Assembly (NCBI GenBank): GCA_010405405.1
Contig: MU004237.1
Location: 472,191 to 536,190 of the forward strand
Source of the DNA: Microthyrium microscopicum
Taxonomy: Eukaryota
Length of the DNA: 64,000 nt
Reading direction: 5' to 3'
The notes beneath the pieces are model-generated. The model searched no databases. It worked only from the letters and a program-made list of their open reading frames with translations, and was not told where the DNA came from. Made by a program: the position numbers and the translations under genes. The stretch's first letter is position 1; each line of letters opens with the position of its first letter. Shown here piece by piece: positions 3,199-53,864 of the stretch.

Positions 3199-4105
3199 TT
3201 ACAACAATCCCATTGCAGCAACCATACCAGCCACTCCCGCAACACCCATCGGCACACCAGTTTGCGCCGCTGCAGCCTTCGAAGCACTCGCCGCCGTAGT
3301 CGTCGCCGCAGTGCTACTGCTTGTCGAGGATGTCGTACTACTAGTAGATTTGGCCGCGCTAGGATTGACGAAGGCGCCGGATGAGATACTGCTTCCCGAG
3401 CCAGAGCTGCTGCCCGATCCACCACCGACTCCAATACCACCTCCGTTGCCTCCGCTTCCACCCGCAGTAGTGGTTGGGCTGCTGCCAGACGCGCTGGCCG
3501 TGAGTTGGAGCTCAACGGGTGGGAGGGAAGTGGTGAGGCAGAGATAGTCTGCAACAGAAGTATGGCCGGAGACGGTGATCACACCGCAATATGGGGTCGC
3601 TGAATTCGTGCTGTAGCCATCAGTAAACGCTCGGTATGGGGGAAAAGCTATACATACCACTTCTTCAGCAGCGTGTCTGACGCGCATGCGCCCGTGCAGG
3701 CACTGAGCGATGCGTATGGGAGACAGGATGTCGCGACTGGACATCCGGTTGGGACAGCTGCTGAGCCACTGCCAACTTCAGACGCGCAGCATCCGAACCA
3801 GTTATATGCCTATTTACCCCATCAGCACTACTTTCCATATCATGTTGGTTTGGTCAACTTACGGTGTTGAAACCACAAGGATGTCCCGCTCCACAGTCCA
3901 AAGGATACGCTGGATCTCCTTCCAAGTACCCACAGATGGAGTCGCTCTGGGCCTGACGCTTGACTAGAGCTGGCGCAGCCGTGGGCATCGGACTCATGCC
4001 CTCGAAATCATATGCGCCAGGCACAAAGTCCGTCGGCGCAGCGAAGTCGGCGAAGATATTCGCATTCGCGCCGGCCACTGCAAGGAGTGTTATGAATGTC
4101 TTCAT
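3199..4105 (-). CDS. Secreted Cys-rich, Ser/Thr/Gly-rich, probably GPI-anchored cell-wall protein
   Basis: Signal peptide MKTFITLLAVAGANA, Cys-rich middle, S/T/G-rich stalk, hydrophobic C-terminus GVAGMVAAMGLL; GTAAGT donor near 3860. Confidence 0.75.
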
Positions 4106-4261
4106 GTTGAGCGAGAGTAATTCACGGAATTGGTGTAACGATGGAAGTAAAGACTAAGATCTGCGGAGCACGCGAGTTGCAGCGAGCTTCGCAGCCATCT
4201 TTATATTTTTCGCAAGTTCTGACTCTAAAGCACTGCACCTCACTGTGGAGCTTGATCGGTA

Positions 4262-7200
4262 CCGTAGGAATCCGGTGAATTGAGCACGATGAAGCCAGTA
4301 AGATGCCGTGAAGGAGGGTAGCGCTATAAGGGGCGTCGAAAATATAGGGCTAGTAAATTAGGTAGTATTTATTTTTAACGCCCGTACTATGTCTAGATAT
4401 TATTACTAAGTAAGCTATTTTAACGTTTTTAAAGCTAATCTAAATCGATTTAAGTAGAATATTATTATTTTAATAGTAGGAGTTATTTTTATAATTAGGC
4501 TAAAGCTATAGAGGGATATTTATATATAGATTTTGTAATAGAATTCTATGTCATTCTTTATACTAATTAATATCCTTAATATCTAATTCTTTTACCTCTA
4601 AACTAATTAAATACTAGGAATTTAACTATTATTATATTATAGGTACTAAAGGAAGAATACTAAAACTATTAGCCTTTTACTAAACTAGACCTAAATATTA
4701 TAGAATTAAGCTTTACTAGACCTTCTAGGACTAAATTATATACTAAAAAGTATAAAGAACTTATCCTTAGGAAGTAACGTACTAAATAAGCTAAATTAAA
4801 GTCCTAGAATTATTCTTTTATAGAATATTAGTTAAAGGTTATAGTATAGATAATATAATAATATATTCTACTTAAATAAAGTAAAAAGCGTTATAAACTA
4901 GCTAATAGTATAAAGTAGAATAAATGTCTTAAAACCTATTACTAGTAGCATTTTACTTTATATAGTAAAGTAGTAAAGTTCTTTAAAAAATCTTATTTAA
5001 TAATATTAAGATAGTAGAATTAGCGCGCCTTATTATAGGTTACTAAGAATTAAGCCTATAGGATTATAGACCCTTTAAAGCGTCCTAAGTACTATTCTAA
5101 ACTTAAAGATACTATTTATATCTAGTATTATAAGTAATAAAAAGAGAAGAAGTTTATTAGTATTTATTAGTTACTTTAATATACTTAGAACGTATAGTAA
5201 TATATTTATATAGCTAAGATTACTACTAGAGTATTTCTTAAATAACGTAAATTCTTAAAGAGTTAGCTTTAAAGATTCCTACTTTACTAGAGGATTAGTT
5301 AAAGGAAAGCTACTTATATTATTTAATAATTATCTAAATTATAGGTTAATTAATGCTAAGACTTTATTACTTATATAAAGCTTACTACTTATAGAGTAAT
5401 TAGACCTACTAGTAGTAAAAGAAGAAATATTAATATACTATCTAATAAAGAATTAGTTGCTTTAATAATGCCTAGAAAAATAGTTAATATAGATAAAACA
5501 CTAATACCTTTTTATAACTTTAGTAGTTATACTTTAGTAAATAAAGGGTTTAGAACTATTATTATTTATACTTATAAAGATAAAGATAAGAAGCGTTAGA
5601 TAATAATAGTTCTAGCTATTACTACTAATAGCGTTCTTTAAATTCTATTACTAATTATATTCTATAGAACTATAGACAAGAATAAGGATTAAATCTTTAA
5701 GATAGAGGACTTATTTTACTATTATAGCGTTTATATAAAGTATAATAAGACAGCGTAGAATAATAATAAGTTAATATAGTAGTAATTAAAAAAGGTTTAT
5801 TTAAAAAGAATAGATATAGCGCTAGAGGGGTATTTTAGTAGTCTTAGTAGTCTTAATAGCTCTAAAGATATTCTATAGCCTTTTATCTTAGGTAATTCTT
5901 CTCTTATACCTTCCTAAAATAGAAATATTTTAGTACTAACTATAAGATCTAGAGCTTAATTTAATAATATCTTTGCTAAATTCTACTTCTACCTTTTTAA
6001 TTATAGTAACTTTAATATCTTTTACTTCTTTAATATCTATAATATTTAACCCTTCTATTTTTAATTATAAACGTATTCTCTACCTATAAAACTAAAAGCG
6101 TTAAGGCTATTTATAAAGATAATAATATTATTATTACTATTATCTCTCTTAGTTATATATCTAAAATCTAATTACTTAACGTTAGCATAAATAAGCCCTT
6201 TAAACAACTAGTTAAGGAATTATAAGACCTTTAGTTCCTTATATTCTATAAATAGGAACGCTTTAAAGACTTCCCTAATCTTAAATCTATAGACTCCCTT
6301 TATTAAATAATATTATAATACTATATATTTATAACGCATATTATAAGATAAGCCTAAAGTTAAATATATATTTATAATAGTAAAGTTATTAGGTACTCCT
6401 TTACTACTATAAGATTAAATAACTAGTTAAATACTACTATTATAGATAAGAAGCATAATATTAGTATTAAAGATTTAATATAACTACTAGACCTTTTAAA
6501 CTAGCGGTTAGTAAAACTAGAATCCATTAAAGCTACTACTACTAAAGAGGATAACTAATAAGAGAAGGATAATAATCTTAAAGTATATGCGCCTAATTTA
6601 GATAATAAAGATAGCATAGAATATTATAATATAAATAAGATTAAAATATCTAAAGATAACGTTAAAGACGTTAAAGATATTAAAGATACTACTATTAATA
6701 TTAATAAAGAAAAAGATAATAGCTTTATAACTTCCTTTATAGGCCTAATAGACGTCCTATTATAAAATTTACTTATTTTCGTACTATTATAAATATTTTA
6801 ACTATTTATTATGCCTTAGCCTATTCTTACTCTAATTCTATAGCTTCTTTACCTTTAGAATTAGTATTTAATACTACTATCTAATGCTCCTCCCTAAATT
6901 AAATCTTATAGTAGACTTAAAGAATTAAATCCTACTTATTTTGTATAGTAGAATACTCTTAGGTTACTAGAATAGATACTTAAAGACTAGTATTAATAGC
7001 TTTCTAAATAGGCCTATAATCCTACTCTAAAATCTACTTAAAATATTAAGATAGGATATTTAATAGTAATATTCTATTAATAATAAGACTTATAATATCT
7101 ATCGTTTAGTATTAAATTAGGTAGTATTCTTAACCTATAGTAAATTTAGTAGAGTTAGGAAAATTATAGGTAACAACTAGGTAATATTAGTATTAAAAAG

Positions 7201-7462
7201 AGCGCTTTAATTTATATACCTATATATAATTCTATATTATCTAGTTCTTAATATCTTAAGCTTTAAATATACCTATTTTAGTATTAGAATTCCTTATTTA
7301 AGATAATATAAAGTTAAATAGTATTATAGGGTTCATAGTTATAAAAATGGATTAGTAGTAAATTACTACTAGGAGCATTTCTATAGAAACCGCGCTAAAA
7401 AGCGCCTTTGAACGCCCTCTCCCTCCACATTTCATCGTGCTTAATTCACCGGATTCTCATGG
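4262..7462. mobile_element. RIP-degraded DNA transposon (Tc1/mariner-pogo-like), about 32 bp TIRs, TA target duplication
   Basis: Left TA|CCGTAGGAATCCGGTGAATTGAGCACGATGAA; right TTCATCGTGCTTAATTCACCGGATTCTCATGG|TA. Interior extremely AT- and TpA-rich with no ORFs in the track. Confidence 0.9.
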
Positions 7463-8169
7463 TAGCTACTCCGCGAGCTCTAGATCTTTCATTGTTTAGC
7501 GAGGCGCATTGTGGCGCGGCGACGCCATTGAGACACACGAGAGCTCGATTGGGGATGGATTGAGCACGAGGTGTGAAGCAGGGAGCAGAGCTTGATCTGT
7601 CGTCACGACACTAGTCTCGCAATGTCTTGAACTTGGCCATTTTGGGGAATTCTAAAGCTTCAGCTGCAGGCTGCTGCTTAGTAGTTGGTTTTTTTTTTGT
7701 AGGTAAAAATAGATGCCGGACGGATCGTTGGTGGTCGAGAACCCCTCTGCATAAAAAGCAAAATGACTGGTCGATCAAGCTTTTCTTGGTGATTGGCTGT
7801 GATGGCGATGATGGCTGGGTGGTGATGAGGCTGTAATTGGGTGGTTTGAGGCATCGTACCTGAAGACTGAAAGATCTGGAATATATATAAAGAGGCGGAC
7901 CTCGCCAAAGAGAAAAGCAGAAAGTGGTCACTGCCGTCTATCGCGAGTCTGACTCTTCATCCGGAGTCTAAAGGCATCGATCAGGGGAAACGGGTGGCTG
8001 GGAGCAACGCCACTATTGATTTCAGCCTGATGGTCCAAAAGGTACAAAGTTTCAAAACCATCGCCAGACTGCCCAATGATCCAGTGTAGATATCAAGACA
8101 AGTCTTGATCCGATGTAACCACCAGAACGTGCTTGTTTCGTTTCGGGTAATGTATCACCAAGACGATCT

Positions 8170-43500: not shown

Positions 43501-45058
43501 TGACTTAATAGGACCAGACGCCTTTCAGGGTCACTTGACTTCTGAAGGTCATCAATCTATTATCGAGCTTGGCTACATGGTTTAGCTAAAAAGAAATAGC
43601 CGCATTATGTGCAAGTCATGTCCAAAATGACAAAATTCTATCTCCTAGTATACACAAATGTGATGGCACTTGGGGCCGCTGTAGTACAAACTCTACCTCC
43701 TCCAATCACAGATGTCATATCTTTGAGATCAACTTGCCGGGAAAATGAGAGTAAGCCTCTTCGCTCAATCTGTACATTGGCAATGACCGGTCACTGCGGG
43801 CATGCGCAATGCAAGGACAACTGTAGAATACCTAACTTCGAAGCAGAGTGAAGTTTCTCGAATTATGGCTTGCGCTTCAACAAATCTAGATTAATAGACA
43901 CACTCAATGGTTGCATATACGAGCATCTAATAGGCTCCCCTCAGAGATTTGAAATATAAATCACAGAAATGGGTGAAAAATATATGGCTGTTTGATATTT
44001 GTAGCGAATAGGGGCAATAAACAACGGCTGAGTAAGCAGCAGACGCGTCTCAGTTTGAGCCTCAAAATCACAACAACAAACACATCGCGACTCACCTAAC
44101 TCCAACCTCAATGCACTCTCTTTACTTCCCCTATCTCTCAAATAAATCTTTGGCTTCTTCGAAATACAGTCAGTCCAAGTTTACCCTATGGAATCATGCA
44201 AGACCAGCAGAAAGACTCGGTAATTCCCTCATGAAGCTCGCCCAGCAGTCTCCTTCCTTTTTCACGTCCCGAGTATGGGCTCTTAGCGTGCCGAGCTTCA
44301 GTCCTGGCCTCAACCTCTCTAAACAAGTGATGGACGTCTGCGCAAGTCCTCCAGTTCTCTCTCGATGGACATATGGGTCTTTGGTTCCTGGACAGCAGCG
44401 TCGTAGCCGCTCCCGCTGGGCCAAATCATAGCACTATGTAGCGTCAGCGAGAGAAGCTTCCTGTCCACGAGCAGAGTTTCATTGGCTGGTTATCGGGGAG
44501 TTCGTGTCACGGCCTGGAGATTATTCCATCGCGTCTGGTTCGGACCTACAAAAGGTCGTTGCACCCCTCTGAGAAAAACCTAACAGAATGAAACCGAGAA
44601 CATGAGTGAGGACAATCGTAAGTAACTCATGTGTGCTTGGTTTTGGCGCTGATAGGTTTCTAGGCCAATCTGGATGCCCTGACCCACACTGCAAATTCGC
44701 ATTGGCAGCCTTCCTCAACACTACTGGATGAATTTATCATCCCGTCATACCTATCCATGGACCTGCTACATTGCATGTAAGCCGGATTCTTTAGCTTCCG
44801 GGACCGTACGCAAGCTAAGTGGTTTATTTGCACAAAAGGCAAAGCCTCTAGCGACGGACGCCTGAGTAGTGCAAGTGGTAAAGGAGGGCAGGTACGCATT
44901 CATGTGCTCGCACAGAAGAAAGTTTCATTCGTCACTACATAAAACTAGTAATAGAGAGAGGAATATTGTTTATGCCGTACAAACAAGAGTTACGCGAGTA
45001 TAGAACGAGTGGTGCTGGCAAACACAAACCATGCCTCAGAAAGAAGGGTGATCAGGAG

Positions 45059-46998
45059 CTAAGGTGCTCCTAGGAACCTCGCATTGTTGATCAAAATCGG
45101 GCGGACGGGCACGACCGTGGCCACTGAGATGTGTGGCCAGGAGAGAGTGTTGAAGTTGAGCAGAACTGTTTGAGAATATTGAATCTGCGTGGCCTCAACT
45201 GCATATCTACCCGCTGGTACATCTTTATTCACTGGAAAGACGAAGCTGGGAACAGTACCTGGTACAAGGCCTTTGTCTATAGGCTGAAGCTCAGTGGGAG
45301 GCGCAAGAAGTTTGCCCTCCGCTCCGGTCTTAGGTTTCCCTTCTGAAGTTACCTGAGCTACATATTTTGTTGGTAGCAGTATCGTGTAGACGACTGTGGA
45401 AATCCAGAAAGTAGACTCAACTTTCCCGACGCTCGCATTAGGTTTACCATTCAAAGCTCCATCCAGGAAAGCAATATTGGCAGTGCCAATGGCCGGCATA
45501 GGGGATGGCGCAACTGGAGCCGGTGCTTTCCCTTTAGCAGCCGTGGCTGGTAGAAGATTCGTTGATCGCTCAACGAAGGTCTGTTGTGCGACTTTGAGTG
45601 CCTGCAAACTTTTGTTGACTTCCTCTTTTTCTTTTGAAGTCGTCACGCTAGTCAGTTTGAGGTCAATGTCTTTAAGCGCCTTGTCTATCGCGGCTTTTGC
45701 ATCGTCGATTGCCGCTTTTGCGGCTAGATGTGGGCATGCTTGTCTCGCGAGAGAGTCGACAGGTAGAGTTGGTAGAGTTGATACAGTGAATTGAATGACT
45801 TGGCTGAAAGCTTTCCCAGCATTGTGGCTCTTTAGGAGGGTGTTTGGATTGTTAACGAGCTCTTGTGTAATTTCCGATGTTGTTGCAATTTTCTGCGGCA
45901 ATCTCGTCGCAGCTCCGTTGGTAAGCGAGAAATGAGGCAGTGTAATCTCACCACCTCCGGCCAGAGGGAAGGGCTTCGAGGAAGCAAGCGGAAAATCAGG
46001 TTGAAATCCATCGTTTGGCGTGGCAGGAGACTTTGGATTGTTCATGATTGGTGCTACTTCTCCTTGGGCGTTGATAGTTGTACCATGAGGAATGGATGCC
46101 ATGCGGCATATTGTAGCGTTGTTTTGAGGTACCTCAGTTGGCGGAACATGCATAAAAAGTCCGGGTTCGAAATGGATATCTTCGACGTCGTCTTGTTGAG
46201 TTGAAACCTTTGCTGCACCCAGATTATCAACCGGGATGCGGGAACCCCCTGAGCTTTTGGCGGTGACGTCCCTCACAAGTTGCGTATATGGAATGCCTTT
46301 CATGAAAAGGTCATGGCGTTTGCTGGGCAAAGCCTCGTCGCCTTGCCCAGCCACACGATTGGGAACATCCCCCAGGTTGCCTTTCTTGCTGGGAAATGTC
46401 CAAATTTCATGGGTGAGATTGAGCTCTAAAAGGTCATCATCTGGTAAGGAAATCCCTGGGTTCGCCTTTTGCAATTTTTCCAAATCCGGTGGTTGTTTAT
46501 CTCCATGAGGTCGGAAGATAAGATTGAATCCAGCTAAACCCGTTAGCGTGTTATTCATGTTGAAGTAGTAAAATGCCAGTAGTATTGAAAGCAAGACGTG
46601 TGGTCCTCGACTCATAAATGCAGTTGAAGCACAAGTACCAAAGGTAGCTTCGATTCTAGCCATCGCCGAGCTTGAAAGAATTTGAAGAGCTACCATTAGA
46701 GAAAAAGAGAATCGCACTTACGCCCAGAAAAAGGTCCTATAAGTCGAGCAATGGCGTCTCCATAGTTTTCCTTTCCTACATTGCGACTCGGGAACCGGAT
46801 AGGATCTGTTTTCGCTGCTACCACTGGTGTTGGGGCTGGCGTAGGGGTGGGTACAGCTGCTGGAGAAGTTGCCGTCCCACCAACTAGACTCTTGTCGGCT
46901 GATTGAATTTTGAATTCCGCAGGCAACGAGATGCCAGGAACGGGCTTGCTAAGGAGCTCTGGGGGATAGAAGTCATTGGCGTTGATGTAGTCAGTCAT
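45059..46998 (-). CDS. Bacterial-type heme-binding protein / putative FMP-type peroxidase
   Basis: LIGPFSG|GFNLIFRP, LLELNLTHE, IHFEPGLF, RMASIPHG, STFWI, QIQYSQTVLLNF, WPHISVAT resemble (from memory) the family of Flavobacterium meningosepticum peroxidase. Intron about 46534-46721 (may hide a micro-exon); no signal peptide. Confidence 0.7.
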
Positions 46999-48330
46999 AA
47001 TTGATGTTGTCGCCAAGATGCTTTGACTAGGGCTGGAATTGAATAGACAAAGAAGTTTTGAAGAGAGCAAAATGGAAAGACGAAGAATACCAGATATAAG
47101 AAAGCTTAGCAGAGAGAAGATCGTGGCCTTGAAATATCTCTCAAGTGCATATACAAGCTTTAGTCTAATGTCACTAAATAGAGCTTGGTAGCAGACTCTG
47201 GATCTGCGTCTTCAGAGTCAATGAAGCATGACTAAATACAGTTCATTGGGCCGATGTGGTCTAGATGCTCTATCGACTGTGTATGGTAGCATGAGGGGAA
47301 GCTGAATGTGTCTACATATCAGCCCTTGGTTTGTGTCTATCCAATTGTAATGTCTCTAGCACTAATGTATCGTATGATGAGCTTCGATTGCGAGCACGAT
47401 ATCCAGCCACTGCTTGAAATATATGCTGCAGGAGCACATTTACATATCTCATCAATGTAATAGAGATACATAATTCGTTCTAGACACAAGGATTTGAGAC
47501 CTCAGCTTTTCGAGACCCTGGGAATGAGCACCCATTAAGATCAGGTAAATGTCGTATACCTGCATAAAGGCTGCAGCTGGGTGGACAAACACCTCAGCCT
47601 TATCTGAAGGAGTGTTATTTCCCGTTTGTTGCGCTATCTCGTTTATGCAGTTGATTGACTTTTCGATAAGTGCCGCGAGGCCGTGAGTCTCGAGCAGTCT
47701 GAAGCGCAATTCATATCTTGGCAGATAATAATGTGCATCTCAGCTATCGGGAAGGTGGTGATCATACTCTATTTCACGACTTTTTGAGACTGGGCATGTT
47801 ATCGACGTGCAGTTCAGCTCCTGTGAATCAGCCTTATGTGCTCATTGTTGCAGAATGCCAAGACCCGGTAAGGCTGTCTCGGCATGCAACTTGGGAATCC
47901 TTCGCCCGTTGCAGTAAATCTAAACGAGTCTGGCGATACGTCTAGACAATCCGGCAGGGGATCCAGAATCTATCCTCAAGTCTAGATTCTCAGCCCTATT
48001 CAAACGAGCGGAGTAATTGAGCTACTCGGCGTTCACCATTGGTCAAGCACGGTGAAGAGACAGGCAATTGGGCACGGGGTTGGACGTCCTGCAGGACGGC
48101 ACGGCACGGCACACTCTACTGCAGGGTAGAAGATGAGTGAGGGATTAAGCCATGGCTCAGGCCCAGGTTGGGTAGGTTGAGCGGTTAGCACTATACTGCG
48201 AGCTAGAACCGAACAAGTATCATTGTATTCGTAGTCAGATAGTCAAATGTAAGAATCTCAAGTAATAGAAGTCGTCACTCAGATGGGATACACATCATGT
48301 GCCAACCAGAGAAACTGAATGGCAAGGCAC

Positions 48331-51230
48331 CTAAATAAGCAGCCGCACTTGGAGTCTGTATCCATCGTCCGTTTGGCTTACTGGGCCAGTAACAGCGTAA
48401 GTTTGGACATCGTCAATTGCTTGCGACTGTACAAGTTTGTCGTAAGCATCAGCTTCTTCGGGAGTAACGGCCTGAGGACTTTGGGAAACCCTGTCCCATT
48501 GAATTTTGGTTTGAGGCTCTAGACGAGTCAATTCAACGTCAGGTCTCGAGCCTTCACCGATCAAGAAGAGTCTGTTATCCTTGAGCTCGACAAAGCCTTT
48601 GAGGGTGGCTTCAAAGCCACGAATCCCGTATGTTGCGCGTATGATGTCGTAAAACTGTCTTCTCCAGTTTTCGAAGACAGGTAGCCCATTATCTTGCATA
48701 TAGACGGAGGCACTCGAGCTATTCGAGTGAGGCATTGGATCGACATGTTCAACGCCATCCAGTTTCCCAAGTGCATCATGTGCAGCACCCCAGCAGGCCG
48801 ATAGACCATATGGGCAGATCGATTCAATCCCGATTTCGATACGTGTTCCCGTGGCCGCTGCGCGCACCGCGGCACGCATTTTGATGGTGTTGGGAGGATT
48901 ATGTTTCGCGAGCTTGAGATCGGCTGCGAACTTCTTGCGTTCGGCTTCCAACTTAGCAGATGGCAAGATTTGCATGATCTTGCCTATTGATGGCTTGCCT
49001 ATCTCATTGAGAGCGAACAGCATGTAATATCCGGGTGGGCATGTGTTGGGATTAGATGGCGCCGTCACAGCAAGGGCCCCAGCTTCTCCTGGTACTGGCT
49101 TGAAGTCTAGCCAGTTGAGCCGTTGACCAGTGTTGATAGAATGTGTGACAGATGAGAGGCCGATCAGGCTTATTTTTTTGATCTGATCTGACGAGGTGGT
49201 GGTAATTTCGAAATTTGCTCCGTGAGTGGCCGAATCTGCCCCAGATATAATGCTCGGCCGCGTTCCAGGTTTGCACAAATATGGAGGCGAAAAGAACTGA
49301 GCATTTCTGTAAGATTCTTTTGGGAGATTGGCCGTATCCTTGTCTTTGATCTGGAACTCGCCGCCTCCAGCACTGAGTATCCTGCCATCTGGCACCAGCA
49401 CCGCAGTTGCATGGTAACAGCGGTCGAATTGTTCAGAAGCCATCAGTTTCCAGCTCCCATTGTCTCCAATGCGTGGATCCCACAGTTCCGCGTCGTGCAC
49501 AGTTCTGCCATCACTGAGATCATTGAAAGGATCTTGGCCAGTGTCACCATTGCCCCGAGTACCACCTGTTACAAGCACCGTCCCATCGGGGAGTATAGTG
49601 GCGTTGTGCTGCCGGCGGGGAAAGTTCATGGGATTGCTCGGTATCCAGCCGATTTCAGCTTGAGCCAAATCAATAGTGTTGGCAGTTGAATCTGGAGGCC
49701 TGCTACCTCCAACAAAAAGTACCTTGCCTGTGTCATACATAACGGAGCATCCGTAGTCGGTCGACACCGGCCTGCTGACCACCGCGGGCTGAGTGGTCTT
49801 AGTAGCGGTAAGCAGTTCAATCGTGTTCCAAGTTCCTGAGCCCGGGGGAGTTGGCGGCATAGTTTTATCGGAGCCATTGATATTTAGGGACAATGTGTTC
49901 TGTAGCGACACTGCAAAAACGAGTCCGTTTGGAGCCACGTGCATGCGTGGATAAAGGTCTTTAATCTCGGACTGTGCACTGCGTACGAACTCTGTACCAG
50001 TCCAGATCTCAGGGATGTTAGCATTGGTATTTGCCTTGGGGTTCTTAGGATCTGTCCCGTAGCTGCCAGATGTCACGAGAACAGCCCCTGTTCCCAAAGA
50101 AGTGACTGTTGGGTACCACCGGCCTTTCAACATTTTAGGACCTGGTTTCCATTTCCCCAGCCCCTTTGCTTCCGGGATGTAGACAGATGACTGGTTGGCA
50201 CCAGAGCCATCATACTCATGGCCCCCGACTACCAATAGGCTTCCATCAGGCAAAAAGGTATGGCCAGAGCAGAAGAGATTTGCATTTGTATCTGGGCCAT
50301 CTCTTTGGTAAGTTGGCTGCGGAGTAAAGTCATATTCCGGAGTGTTCTTGGAAGGATCAAACTCTCGGGGATTGACGGGATCAAACAGAAAAGGGGTGCA
50401 AGTTGCTGCAGGAGAAGGTAGACCTCCAGGACCGTCAATAGGGGTCGGTGGAAACGTGTTCATGGATTGCTTGGGATTGTCTCGTCTGCCCCACATAAGT
50501 ATCTTGCCAGTCCACAAGAGATGAGCATGGGCAGCAACATTTGGTAATTGAATGACCTTGCCCCATTGGCCTCGTTGACTTGGGTCGGGGATAGTACTTC
50601 CGATGGTAAAGTTGAATGGGCTTTTTCGAGCATCTTCGTCTTTACCGGATGTGGCAGAAAATAGACCAGTAGCGTCGCTGCTTCGAAGATACGTGATCTC
50701 TTTATCGGCTTGGGCTTATGAAGGACATATTAGCATATGTCTTTCATGGGTAACAATACATTCTGCGAAGTGACAAGTAAGTCTCCCGAAGATCCCTTTT
50801 CTCCTCTTATATATCTTGTGCGAATGGCTTCATAAGGATTACAATGAAGAATTTGAGCTGTGCAGACCGAGCAGATTATTGTCAGGAAGAGCTTACCATA
50901 CGCAGCGACTATATAGTATTGCACTTGAGTGCCCGCAGGGAGTCCATCGACTGGAATGGCTGCAGAAAAGAATTTGTCATTTCCGACAGTATCGACAAAC
51001 TCCATTTGCTGTGTCTGCCAGGCCGTCCAGTTACTCTTGAGCAATTGCCTAAACCACAACGCACTGCCATCTCGAAGTTGATTGCCAGCAGCTGAGCCAC
51101 CCTGAAATTGATTGCCGCTGAATATTGTGACCTGCTTGGTGGAATCATTGGGGAATGCAGGACTTCGCATACCATTCGTCGCAGGCCTTTTGGCTTCCGT
51201 AGGCGTATGCCAGGCATTACCGAACACCAT
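48331..51230 (-). CDS. Copper radical oxidase (galactose oxidase-like, AA5 fold) with N-terminal beta domain and C-terminal HMA-like domain
   Basis: LFCSGH (Cys), RWYPT (Tyr), RCYHA (Tyr-His), SSVTHS (His), Kelch repeats, CPPGYYMLF; intron about 50716-50896 joins QYYIVAAY to AQADKEITYL in frame. Confidence 0.9.
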
Positions 51231-52384
51231 TTCGATCTGATGTGGTGTAAGAGATGCAGTTCAACAAAGGCAAACGGATAGTGAGAAGAGCTGGAGAAGG
51301 AGTGAATCATGTGCCGATTGCATATACCTTGAGTCTTATAGAATTCTGCAGATAAATACCCCAGCCATCAGATGGGCTGCATGGCACCGCTGAAGGATCA
51401 AAGGAACGATCACTACAACGTACGAACTGCATTGAATCCTTTGAGAGTCGTTCGCGTCGCCAGATGTGATTCTGGACCACGCCAAGGCATGCAAGACAAC
51501 CAAAAGCTGACAACAACCATGATCGGCTGCATAAGCATCGCATGAGTTTGAGAAAACCCCACTTCAGCCTTATCAAGCTGAAGAACGCATATGCATGCAC
51601 AGTGTAGTATGAAAGACCTTAGACGGAGCTCATCTGAGATCAATTCCTCTGCAAGACCTTTCTGGGCCAGAAGCGCTTGTCGATGAATCTTGATTTGCTT
51701 GGCATTGCTGTTCGCCGTGATTGACCGCTCAAAAGCTGAATAGTGATGGGAATCAAGGCGCGGAACATGCCACCCTGGAAATCATGGTCTATTCCATGAG
51801 ATGACACTGGAAGTCTTGCTCCATTTGAGAAAAGGAATAGGGGTCACCGCTTGCCATTTGGTGCATAGACCCATGCGTCAACATGGGCAAGCGATACAAT
51901 ATCTGATCAACTCTCCAGGCGTCTGTAATGGTGGTACAGTGTAGTGAGCAGTGGATAGAAACGCGTCTGAAAGGGAGGATTAAAATGATGAACAACCTTG
52001 GACAGGGACTGAACAGTGAATGGGGGGAAAGAAAACAGATCGCTGACTAAGCTTTGCCAGGAGTACCGTGCGTTCAGGGGTCAAGTCAATAAGCCTCAAC
52101 ATTGTCAACAACAACTCCTTTTCCTTCATCCTTTGACTCTACTTTCACCATCCATTTCATTAAGGACCTGCATGATTCAGATCCGGCTATCTATCAGCGC
52201 CTTGAAAATGACATTTTGACTGGTTTGCACTTCGTCTTAAACTCGGAGTGTAATCAGTGAATCTAACAACTATCAAGAGTTTATTGATCAAGAAATGAGC
52301 AACAAATCAGACCCCATTGGGAGAGTCGTGATTTGACGAAACCCAATTTTCGATCCAGTTGGTGGCTTAGAACTCAGACATCGG

Positions 52385-53864
52385 TCAACTTTGGCTTTGG
52401 GCAATGATTTCGTCTCTCTCTACGGCACTGATCCGGACACCATAGCCTTCAAGCAAGTTGACGACTCCATCGTGTTCTCGGTCAATGGCGGTTTTCAGTG
52501 CAGCGCGAATGCTGACTTCTTGTACCTTGCTATGTTCGAAAAGTAGACGAGTGGTGTTCACAGATCCACCCTTTGCTGCGTGCTCGATTGCAGAGCCAAC
52601 AATAGCACCCTCCTCGAGCAGCAGTTGGACAATCTCGGTGTGACCACTTTTCGCCGCAGCATGAAGGGCCCAACTGCCATCATAATTTTTGGGCATGGTA
52701 GCGCCGAGCAAGAATTCCAGCGGTGCTTCCACTTCTCGAAGTAAATAGCGGACCATGTCTTGTAGTCCATGTTCCGACGCCTTTACCAGCCGGAGCGGCA
52801 CAAATCTCTTGCGAAACTCGGCCCGCTTTTTGGCCTGTATATCGGGGCACGGTGCAAGCGGCCTCTTCACTGGGTCTTCAGTCCATAATTTGAGTTCCCA
52901 GATAAACCTGCGCAGTGTACTGAGAGAACTTGTTTGCGACAAGATCTCACGGAGCGGACGGAGCGCATCGTTAGAGCCCGAGAGGTGGTCCCAACTGGAA
53001 CTGAGGGCCATATCAACCAGGTCGTCATGTCCCCCTCGTCCTGCCCAGCGAATTACGGTGGGCCTATGGCCAGGGAAATCGGCTCTGTCGGTCTTGGGGG
53101 GTTTTGGATACTGGTGGACCAGCAGGTTCACAATATCTCGGTGGCCGCCATACGCAGCGCATGCTTCAGGAAATGGAAATATGCTCTCCGCACTGTACAA
53201 GTTAGTTTTAACGGATAACTAAAAGCCCAGTGCACTCCTACTTAGCACAGTAATAGTTGAAATCTTGATCGCACAAAGCTTGCACCAAAGGCATCATTCC
53301 AAGAAAAGCTGCCGCACTCAAAAGTTGCTGGGTGAAGTACTTACTCAACAGAATACCATTCGGATTGTCTACAGGATGACGTTGCATGTATTTGTTGACA
53401 TTGAGATGAAAGTGAAGATTAGCGAACGACAAGTTGCAAAGCTTTCTGACACATGCTCTGAATTGCTCGTCAGTATAGCGGCTAGAGTACAGCTCGTCTT
53501 GGTGTTCAAGAATGCCGCGAGCAACATTATGTATTATGAAGATCTCAGGTGAAGCAGATCTGGCCCCGAGGACACAGCGCACCAGATATTGCTGCCAAAA
53601 CCATGCCGCTTCATTTCTCAAGGCGAGCTTGGGTATGTTTTGGTCACTCTCAATAATGCCAGATTGGAATATGGCGTCGACTGTATACTGTGCGAAAGTT
53701 TCTGTAGAGAGTCAGCTCAATCGATGACCACAAAGAATCTGGCCGGCCTCACTGTTGACGAGTCTTAGTCTTAGAGCCCGCTTGAAGCTTCTAGCGCGGA
53801 CACAGTGCTCGAGAATTAATATAAGTAGTTCCGGAGAAAGAACAGAGAGCGGCATGACTGCCAT
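52385..53864 (-). CDS. Ankyrin-repeat protein with N-terminal F-box-like motif
   Basis: LSPELLILILEH..RALRLRLVN; AAYGGHRDIVNLL, ALHAAAKSGHTEIVQLLLEEGA; two introns. Confidence 0.8.

Follow-up and report, generated by a model that had tools for sequence, protein, structure and literature searches.

An HMA-like module with a C-x6-C loop at the C-terminus of a copper-radical oxidase of Microthyrium microscopicum: a candidate built-in copper-loading domain

The window analysed here, a stretch of 64,000 nucleotides of contig MU004237.1 from the fungus Microthyrium microscopicum, carries on its minus strand a copper-radical oxidase (CRO) gene whose product ends in an additional module with two closely spaced cysteines (Table 1). 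The spliced model of this gene was identical to a database protein of 905 residues (P0004), which bears the source label of a DUF1929 protein of Microthyrium microscopicum, the domain region included. Pfam recognized the kelch, glyoxal-oxidase and E-set domains of the oxidase and had no match to the final 189 residues. The intron of the gene (GT..AG) was spliced out in an RNA-derived contig, and altogether three introns with canonical ends were skipped by such contigs, namely that of the oxidase, one in the neighbouring FMP-type gene and one upstream of the oxidase. The oxidase gene is therefore transcribed and spliced, although the contigs come from one public run, which is not catalogued as RNA and was recognized as such by its spliced joints, and cannot prove a single transcript, its start or its level. 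The module occurred in a single copy in the Microthyrium genome, which contains three further CROs, AA5_1-like in appearance.

Table 1. Positions in the window of the oxidase gene, its parts and the neighbouring features
Feature	Position	Strand	Details
CRO gene, 905 aa	48331..51230	-	exon 51230-50897, intron 50896-50715, exon 50714-48331
N-terminal ~150-residue beta-sandwich domain	50593..51230	-	GH31/GH13 likeness; candidate carbohydrate-binding module
Seven-bladed kelch propeller	49261..50574	-	aligned to solved galactose oxidases, best E 6e-35; Foldseek E 2e-39
Cys544, just before axial ligand Tyr545 (RCYH)	49417..49419	-	clade marker travelling with the module
Galactose-oxidase-like E-set (Ig-like) domain with copper ligand His636	48967..49260	-	PF09118, E 6.7e-23; His636 invariant in alignment
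Two-helix linker from E-set to module, residues ~698-731	48856..48957	-	full-length AF2 model, helices 698-714 and 721-731
HMA-like ferredoxin fold (beta-alpha-beta-beta-alpha-beta), residues ~733-815	48604..48852	-	AF2 model, structure matches
C-x6-C loop, Cys745 and Cys752	48793..48816	-	between strand 1 and helix 1, the position of the HMA CxxC loop
OB-like beta-barrel subdomain, residues ~808-905	48334..48627	-	long strand in common with the HMA fold
Upstream intron	51237..51327	-	RNA joint 51236/51328; removal joins a 99-codon open frame in frame
Downstream gene for a putative FMP-type haem-binding (peroxidase-like) protein, 583 aa	45059..46998	-	intron 46721-46534, skipped in RNA contig

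The architecture of kelch propeller and E-set domain was confirmed by Pfam, by Foldseek and by a full-length AlphaFold2 (AF2) model (pTM 0.86). Five first-shell residues aligned with those of galactose oxidase, and by this alignment Cys260 and Tyr312 are the cross-link pair while Tyr545, His546 and His636 are the ligands; the roles in galactose oxidase are those given in section 2.2 of PMC11611005. The CRO active-site motifs were present in 113 to 120 of the 120 nearest relatives. The best PDB matches were of the AA5_2 type. The AA5_2 galactose/alcohol oxidases (1gof, 9g43, 5c86) have the same propeller and E-set domain and all five first-shell residues. Structural identity to them was ~22%, however, and in place of CBM32, PAN or WSC the oxidase has a GH13/GH31-type N-domain and the C-terminal module. 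The clade also differs from AA5_2 in having Tyr for Trp290 (Tyr330 in this protein) and a Cys before the axial Tyr, and most of its members are without a signal peptide. The GlxA equivalog model (NF052501) gave 147.2 bits against its cut-off of 800.

The N-terminal domain had no match in Pfam. It was 37% identical over 147 residues (E 3e-21) to the N-terminus of a GH31 protein encoded next to the oxidase in one bacterial locus (L033), and its structure matches in the Atlas were the N-domains of GH31 and alpha-amylase proteins (TM 0.58-0.71). Several relatives (P0029, L058, L075) have a whole alpha-amylase-like domain ahead of the CRO. From the GH31/GH13-type N-domain and these fusions, the substrate of the oxidase is likely a carbohydrate. 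In locus L061 (also L056, L070, L026 and L077), alpha-amylase-CRO-module fusions lay in clusters with FMP, ferritin-like (PF12902) and GMC oxidoreductase genes, the last together with its small FAD-SLDH subunit. Two CRO-module paralogues per locus were seen in L011 and L021, those of L021 being interleaved with FMP genes, one of which has a LysM domain.

The first-pass annotation of this DNA had placed about 190 extra residues after the Ig-like domain and had described in them the strand, Cys-loop and helix pattern of HMA copper chaperones, with CX6C instead of CXXC. The motif CPYGLSAC was confirmed at the C-terminus of the oxidase, and the extra C-terminus is real but slightly longer than stated, comprising 211 residues, of which ~35 form a helical linker and ~180 the module (the E-set domain ends near 48967). 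An AF2 model of the module, predicted from 83 sequences with pLDDT 96 and pTM 0.90, reproduced the described pattern: strand 12-19, loop, helix 29-37, strands 42-45 and 55-60, helix 68-79 and strand 83-99 (model numbering). Residues 9-91 of the model form a beta-alpha-beta-beta-alpha-beta unit, and residues 84-181 form a second, OB-like barrel that the earlier reading had missed. Cys21 of the model follows strand 12-19 and Cys28 directly precedes helix 29-37, as in the loops of HMA domains, with a loop four residues longer; six residues separate the two Cys in nearly all copies.

Structural comparison bore out the HMA-type ferredoxin-like fold that the annotation had expected. In a VIA-align search of 48,161 PDB representatives, the top match was MBD3 of RAN1 (8rnz; Z 8.4, 75 residues aligned at a root-mean-square deviation (rmsd) of 2.9), and the next matches were mostly HMA domains, many at Z 6.3-7.6, from PacS, CopA, Ccc2, ATP7B, CCS and rice receptors. 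In Foldseek, the best matches of the module (CCS, Atx1, a CopZ-type chaperone) had E values between 4e-3 and 1e-2, and none was below 1e-3. The OB-like half matched the SSB/PriB and NlpE C-terminal barrels in VIA-align (Z 5.7-6.3) and the OB domains of tRNA synthetases and CST in Foldseek, with middling scores in both. Compared with the HMA, Atx1, CopZ and CCS domain I structures (PF00403; 8rnz, 2xmw, 1cc7, 2rsq), the module has the same fold over ~70 residues at rmsd 2.4-3.2 and likewise a Cys pair in the loop behind strand 1, whose second member lies where helix 1 begins. It differs from them in having C-x6-C rather than M-x-C-x-x-C, in an identity of 11-22% with no Pfam match, in the continuation of strand 4 into the OB-like barrel, in its fusion to the presumed target and in the third Cys of its exported stand-alone forms. 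The module profile found no match among PDB sequences at E<=10 and none in NCBIfam, and one Atlas neighbour cluster at 0.85, in which PF00403 was assigned to 16% of the members, offers a lead only. By predicted fold and Cys position, the module is thus like an HMA chaperone, and by motif and profile it lies outside HMA. Fold likeness alone shows no function. Covariation over 227 sequences (effective number 94) was noise-like and was discarded, and a complex prediction of the propeller and E-set domain against the module, made with no alignments, scored 0.00.

A different use of the two Cys is suggested by the motif itself, which starts with Cys-Pro-Tyr ahead of a helix; glutaredoxin sites likewise have Cys-Pro-Tyr before a helix. 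The C-x6-C pair could be a redox dithiol/disulfide that converts Cu(II) to Cu(I), maintains Cys260 and Cys544 in the reduced state for maturation, or works as an H2O2-sensing switch or a peroxide sink. We regard this, the strongest competitor of copper loading, as somewhat unlikely, and the fold, ferredoxin/HMA-like rather than thioredoxin-like, speaks against it. Membership in the thioredoxin/glutaredoxin fold with CxxC did not hold, as the order of elements is ferredoxin-like and the spacing is x6, while redox activity is still compatible with the model. To read the Cys-Pro motif as thioredoxin/GILT-like or TusA-like did not agree with the predicted topology, and these readings were set aside; both folds were missing from the top 50 structure rows, which falls short of a formal exclusion.

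The module belongs to a sizeable family. Among cluster representatives at 50% identity, a HMMER profile scan gave 325 relatives with E<=0.001, the best 150 of which were examined; an earlier word-based search had reached 3 proteins only and understated the family. Both Cys were conserved in 128 of the 135 aligned copies that cover the motif and in all 120 stand-alone modules listed, and five of the seven exceptions were second repeats of tandem proteins. The C-x6-C module is not a chance feature, given the number of relatives and the conservation of the pair. The Cys were also better kept than their neighbours, both being present in 15/15 divergent stand-alone modules while Tyr and Trp vary. 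Tyr807, an aromatic residue in the loop between helix 2 and strand 4, was kept in 116/120 of the stand-alone homologues listed, and an aromatic residue in this loop is common to many HMA domains. The OB half has conserved residues of its own.

Among the 150 module matches listed, 73 have CRO sequence in front and many others are fragments. Since these matches had been selected by the module itself, a second search was run with the CRO part only, and among its best 120 relatives the module was found on 117 and the full motif on 116; the tails of the three without it look frameshifted. As a control, 60 stretches around the best E-set matches were taken from samples of Actinomycetota and Acidobacteriota genomes; genomes that had been flagged, matches with lower scores and the two centre genomes, which are known carriers, were left out. 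The module was on none of the 62 CRO frames in these stretches, and none of the frames had a Cys before the axial Tyr, four being without any R-x-Y-H match. By comparison, RCYH was present in 120/120 of the CRO-selected relatives and in 73/73 of the fused proteins. The association of RCYH with the module counts as one event, because its carriers form one clade. The fusion noticed in the first-pass annotation is therefore real and near-obligate in this CRO clade. It appears very improbable that the module has no link to the oxidase and is carried along incidentally or results from an error of gene calling: it does occur alone, in tandem and on a subtilase, but here it is one open exon under a spliced RNA contig and it stands on nearly all of the nearest relatives, across many phyla and several fungi. 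The conservation of the fusion has largely refuted this explanation.

Exported tandem forms (P0113, P0115, P0127-P0129) consist of two HMA/OB repeats, the second without Cys, in some cases followed by fibronectin-III domains. In Elasticomyces elasticus, a subtilase of family S8 is fused to the HMA/OB module with no CRO (P0093). The statement that characterised fungal AA5 enzymes lack the module agrees with the literature, in so far as the modules named in the cited parts of the AA5 papers are CBM32, PAN and WSC; those of the recent PMC13390370 and PMC13094651 name WSC and PAN only. No published description of the HMA/OB module was found among titles and abstract openings, a scope that lies outside most subscription journals and all supplements. 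What is new here is a fused clade that has the RCYH marker and no signal peptides, together with its link to FMP and its copies in fungi.

The annotation had also taken the oxidase for a cytosolic enzyme, which was supported in part. A signal-like leader was called by one crude hydrophobicity test, which found such a stretch in 40 of the 59 control CROs with a complete 5' end, compared with 7/120 and 5/73 in the two sets of fused proteins, where it lay in nearly all cases within the N-domain. Close relatives begin at a position matching ATG 51230, and the neighbouring 583-residue FMP protein has no signal-like N-terminus. Together, these findings support an intracellular clade. The stand-alone modules, on the other hand, are exported. 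They form a branch of ~200-230 residues with 198 matches, of which the best 120 were examined, and hydrophobic leaders were seen in 114 of the 116 that could be tested. In 108 of these 120, strand 3 begins with a third Cys, which would lie on the same face of the modelled domain as the Cys pair. Export with three Cys retained is a point in favour of the redox dithiol. JGI names many of the stand-alone modules 'galactose oxidase' although the oxidase is absent, a misannotation that has propagated.

A secreted form of the Microthyrium oxidase is possible as well. Once the upstream intron is spliced out, an open frame of 99 codons, which contains ATGs at 51543 and 51432, runs in frame into the gene. 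Starting at 51543, the protein would be 74 residues longer, and the extension has a hydrophobic stretch (shuffle p about 0.009). The upstream start lies in a weak context and is followed by several out-of-frame ATGs, and the contig depth, itself a poor measure, drops from ~190 to 45 above 51384. From its sequence, the upstream exon may thus provide a secreted isoform. This exon (51328-51600, minus strand) may have been acquired recently as a signal-like leader, or its open frame may be due to chance within the 5' untranslated region.

The gene downstream of the oxidase matched the FMP-type model NF040572 (145.7 bits, E 2e-42, for the unspliced open frame; cut-off 150), and this cut-off was passed by 11 of the 12 bacterial neighbours scanned. 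The Microthyrium genome has two FMP-type genes, one of them beside the oxidase; the other lies ~41 kb from an AA5_1-like CRO (G000:C7:1835944-1837117 and C7:1794376-1794660). Within 8 kb of the 78 bacterial loci that were kept from a GTDB genome scan, FMP genes were found at 20, animal-type haem-peroxidase-like genes at 9 and DyP-like genes at 5, together at 32/78, while none of the 60 control stretches, which were shorter, contained a haem-peroxidase-like gene. In a sample of 301 Actinomycetota genomes, only three had an FMP match above the cut-off, and one of the three was the centre genome, a known carrier. In P0105 and P0101, FMP, CRO and module are joined in a single chain. These gene arrangements make the FMP neighbour a putative peroxidase-like haem partner of the oxidase; no literature on FMP peroxidases was found. 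One RNA-derived contig of 6.7 kb (44133-51238), spliced at three introns, spans the oxidase, a 1.3-kb spacer and the FMP gene, which is a hint, not proof, of read-through or of a two-gene transcript in a fungus.

The neighbourhoods bear on two alternatives. The oxidase makes H2O2 and peroxidase-like genes are its commonest neighbours, as would suit a redox dithiol; against this, no thioredoxin-reductase-like family was found among the recurrent neighbours (22 of 29 families scanned, two of them CRO and FMP). Selenocysteine, usually a sign of redox catalysis, was not seen either: no database protein searched contained U, and the genome samples gave no additional family member with an in-frame stop, a check of little power since they yielded the centre genomes only. 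The module might also have a structural role or dock the haem partner, a substrate or a second subunit, with its Cys in a structural disulfide or a zinc site. HMA folds do serve as metal-free binding surfaces (rice Pik, RGA5), OB-like barrels are typical ligand-binding folds, the OB half is conserved in its own right, and the second repeats of tandem proteins retain the fold while losing both Cys. One conserved docking surface is unlikely, however, because a peroxidase-like gene lay within 1 kb at only 24/78 loci and the genes come from three unrelated families. The odd number of Cys in the stand-alone forms argues against a structural pair, and a structural disulfide would be unlikely in proteins without signal peptides. 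On balance, we consider the docking or structural role improbable.

With a probability of about 0.5, the module serves to load Cu(I) from within the same chain, since the clade has the three parts of the Streptomyces GlxA-Sco-DtpA system: an oxidase, a Cys-based domain, which is HMA-like here, and a haem partner. It would then be a one-chain counterpart of that system. The computed basis consists of the intact CRO site, the HMA-type fold, the two invariant Cys, the fusion, Cys544 and the recurrent haem partner. The fold matches were dominated by Cu-, Zn- and Hg-binding HMA domains and CCS domain I, and the partner of the module was a copper enzyme in 117/120 CRO-selected relatives and at 77/78 bacterial loci. 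In the cited part of PMC4736821, GlxA maturation requires the copper chaperone Sco and the DyP peroxidase DtpA, which with GlxA likewise make up a linked cluster of CRO, Cys-based chaperone and haem peroxidase. In that system the oxidase is exported and Sco is made as a protein of its own, whereas the candidate chaperone here is HMA-like and fused, and its usual partner is FMP-type. Sco has a thioredoxin fold. CCS (6fon, 6fp6), which stood in the top Foldseek rows, likewise devotes an Atx1-like domain to one copper enzyme, SOD1; it works in trans through a SOD-like domain, however, and only its HMA part aligns, the second domain here being OB-like.

By such a mechanism, Cys745 and Cys752 would bind Cu(I) as a two-coordinate thiolate site; longer Cys loops are able to bind Cu(I) linearly, as in CueR. 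The Cu(I) would be handed to the apo site formed by Tyr312, Tyr545, His546 and His636, perhaps via Cys544 as a speculative relay ligand, and Cu(I) and O2 would then rapidly form the Cys260-Tyr312 cross-link. Maturation of galactose oxidase takes seconds with Cu(I) and hours with Cu(II) (PMC11611005, section 2.2). The neighbouring haem protein would oxidise the resting enzyme to the radical form and consume H2O2. In the cited parts of PMC9770985 and PMC11611005, a tandem peroxidase accompanies fungal alcohol oxidases and activates them, and the Perox-AlcOx pair of PMC9770985 shows the same genomic pairing with a haem peroxidase as here, where the haem family is different. The substrate would probably be a carbohydrate or an alcohol, possibly derived from alpha-glucan. 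A single chain would thereby be equivalent to GlxA, Sco and DtpA, for use where free copper is scarce.

Several observations weigh against copper loading. The module does not have the HMA motif M-x-C-x-x-C, with no Met before the first Cys and a spacing of x6, and Pfam HMA (PF00403) matched 0/83 and 0/15 of the members and not the module itself at E<=1. The fold scores were middling (top Z 8.4, Foldseek E above 0.001), and the metal-free rice HMA domains scored as high as the chaperones. The RCYH link represents one clade and thus one event. The exported stand-alone forms fit redox chemistry as well, and a secreted isoform, should the upstream exon supply one, would also run counter to a cytosolic loading scheme. 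The subtilase fusion in one fungus concerns an enzyme that needs no copper, and a crude motif scan of the 78 neighbourhoods found no copper ATPase, CopZ or multicopper oxidase; both of these findings favour the redox dithiol. Taken together, the module probably loads or redox-tunes the copper site of the oxidase.

The module is not a peculiarity of fungi: the family is chiefly soil-bacterial, spread across many bacterial phyla, and its fungal copies are scattered. The GTDB scan gave 98 confirmed matches, and its pattern and ranking favour fused forms. The 78 loci came from Actinomycetota, Acidobacteriota, Pseudomonadota, Verrucomicrobiota, Cyanobacteriota and others, and the module followed the CRO sequence in the same frame at all of them except one at a contig edge. 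Orthologues from Geodermatophilus amargosae (L037) and Nostoc sp. (L036) are among them. A domain-profile search of 301 Verrucomicrobiota genomes, 251 of the phylum of G709 and 301 Acidobacteriota genomes matched the centre genomes only. Named fungal carriers are Lophiostoma, Echria, Cladophialophora, Bacidia and Pestalotiopsis, in addition to Elasticomyces with its subtilase fusion. In a quick tree of 72 CRO domains, whose only AA5_1-like outgroups were two sequences of the same genome and which contained no AA5_2 reference, the Microthyrium protein and that of Lophiostoma fell within Actinomycetota (SH-aLRT 99 and 97), apart from the other fungi. On this sequence placement, transfer from bacteria to fungi is likely. 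A test of a single fungal clade gave a borderline p-AU of 0.045 with 53 rows. It omitted the long outgroups and most of the unnamed rows and was run after the tree had been inspected, so that it suggests two transfers but does not demonstrate them. The wider picture is tentative: an intracellular CRO clade of many soil-bacterial phyla, passed to fungi possibly more than once, might mature by itself with a new C-x6-C HMA/OB chaperone in cis, a Cys relay and FMP proteins as dedicated radical activators.

CROs have been studied as secreted, self-maturing enzymes, and their copper supply in vivo is known mainly for Streptomyces GlxA. In a clade with oxidase and chaperone-like domain on one chain, a single deletion and two point mutations of the same protein are enough to test copper delivery and formation of the Cys-Tyr cofactor. 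The module further represents an unnamed family of putatively metal- or redox-active domains whose Cys spacing is non-canonical. The gene pairing points to a physiological partner of the FMP-type haem proteins, and the clade might be a source of oxidases that mature in the cytoplasm, which would be of use in biocatalysis.

Elsewhere in the window, an ankyrin-repeat gene (52385-53621, minus strand; PF12796, E 4e-17) lies upstream of the oxidase. Two introns of plus-strand polarity were seen, one (52222-52276) antisense to the 3' side of the ankyrin gene and one (44618-44663) convergent with the 3' end of the FMP gene. The GC content fell to 27-30% at positions 4001-8000, compared with ~47% elsewhere, possibly reflecting a repeat mutated by repeat-induced point mutation (RIP).

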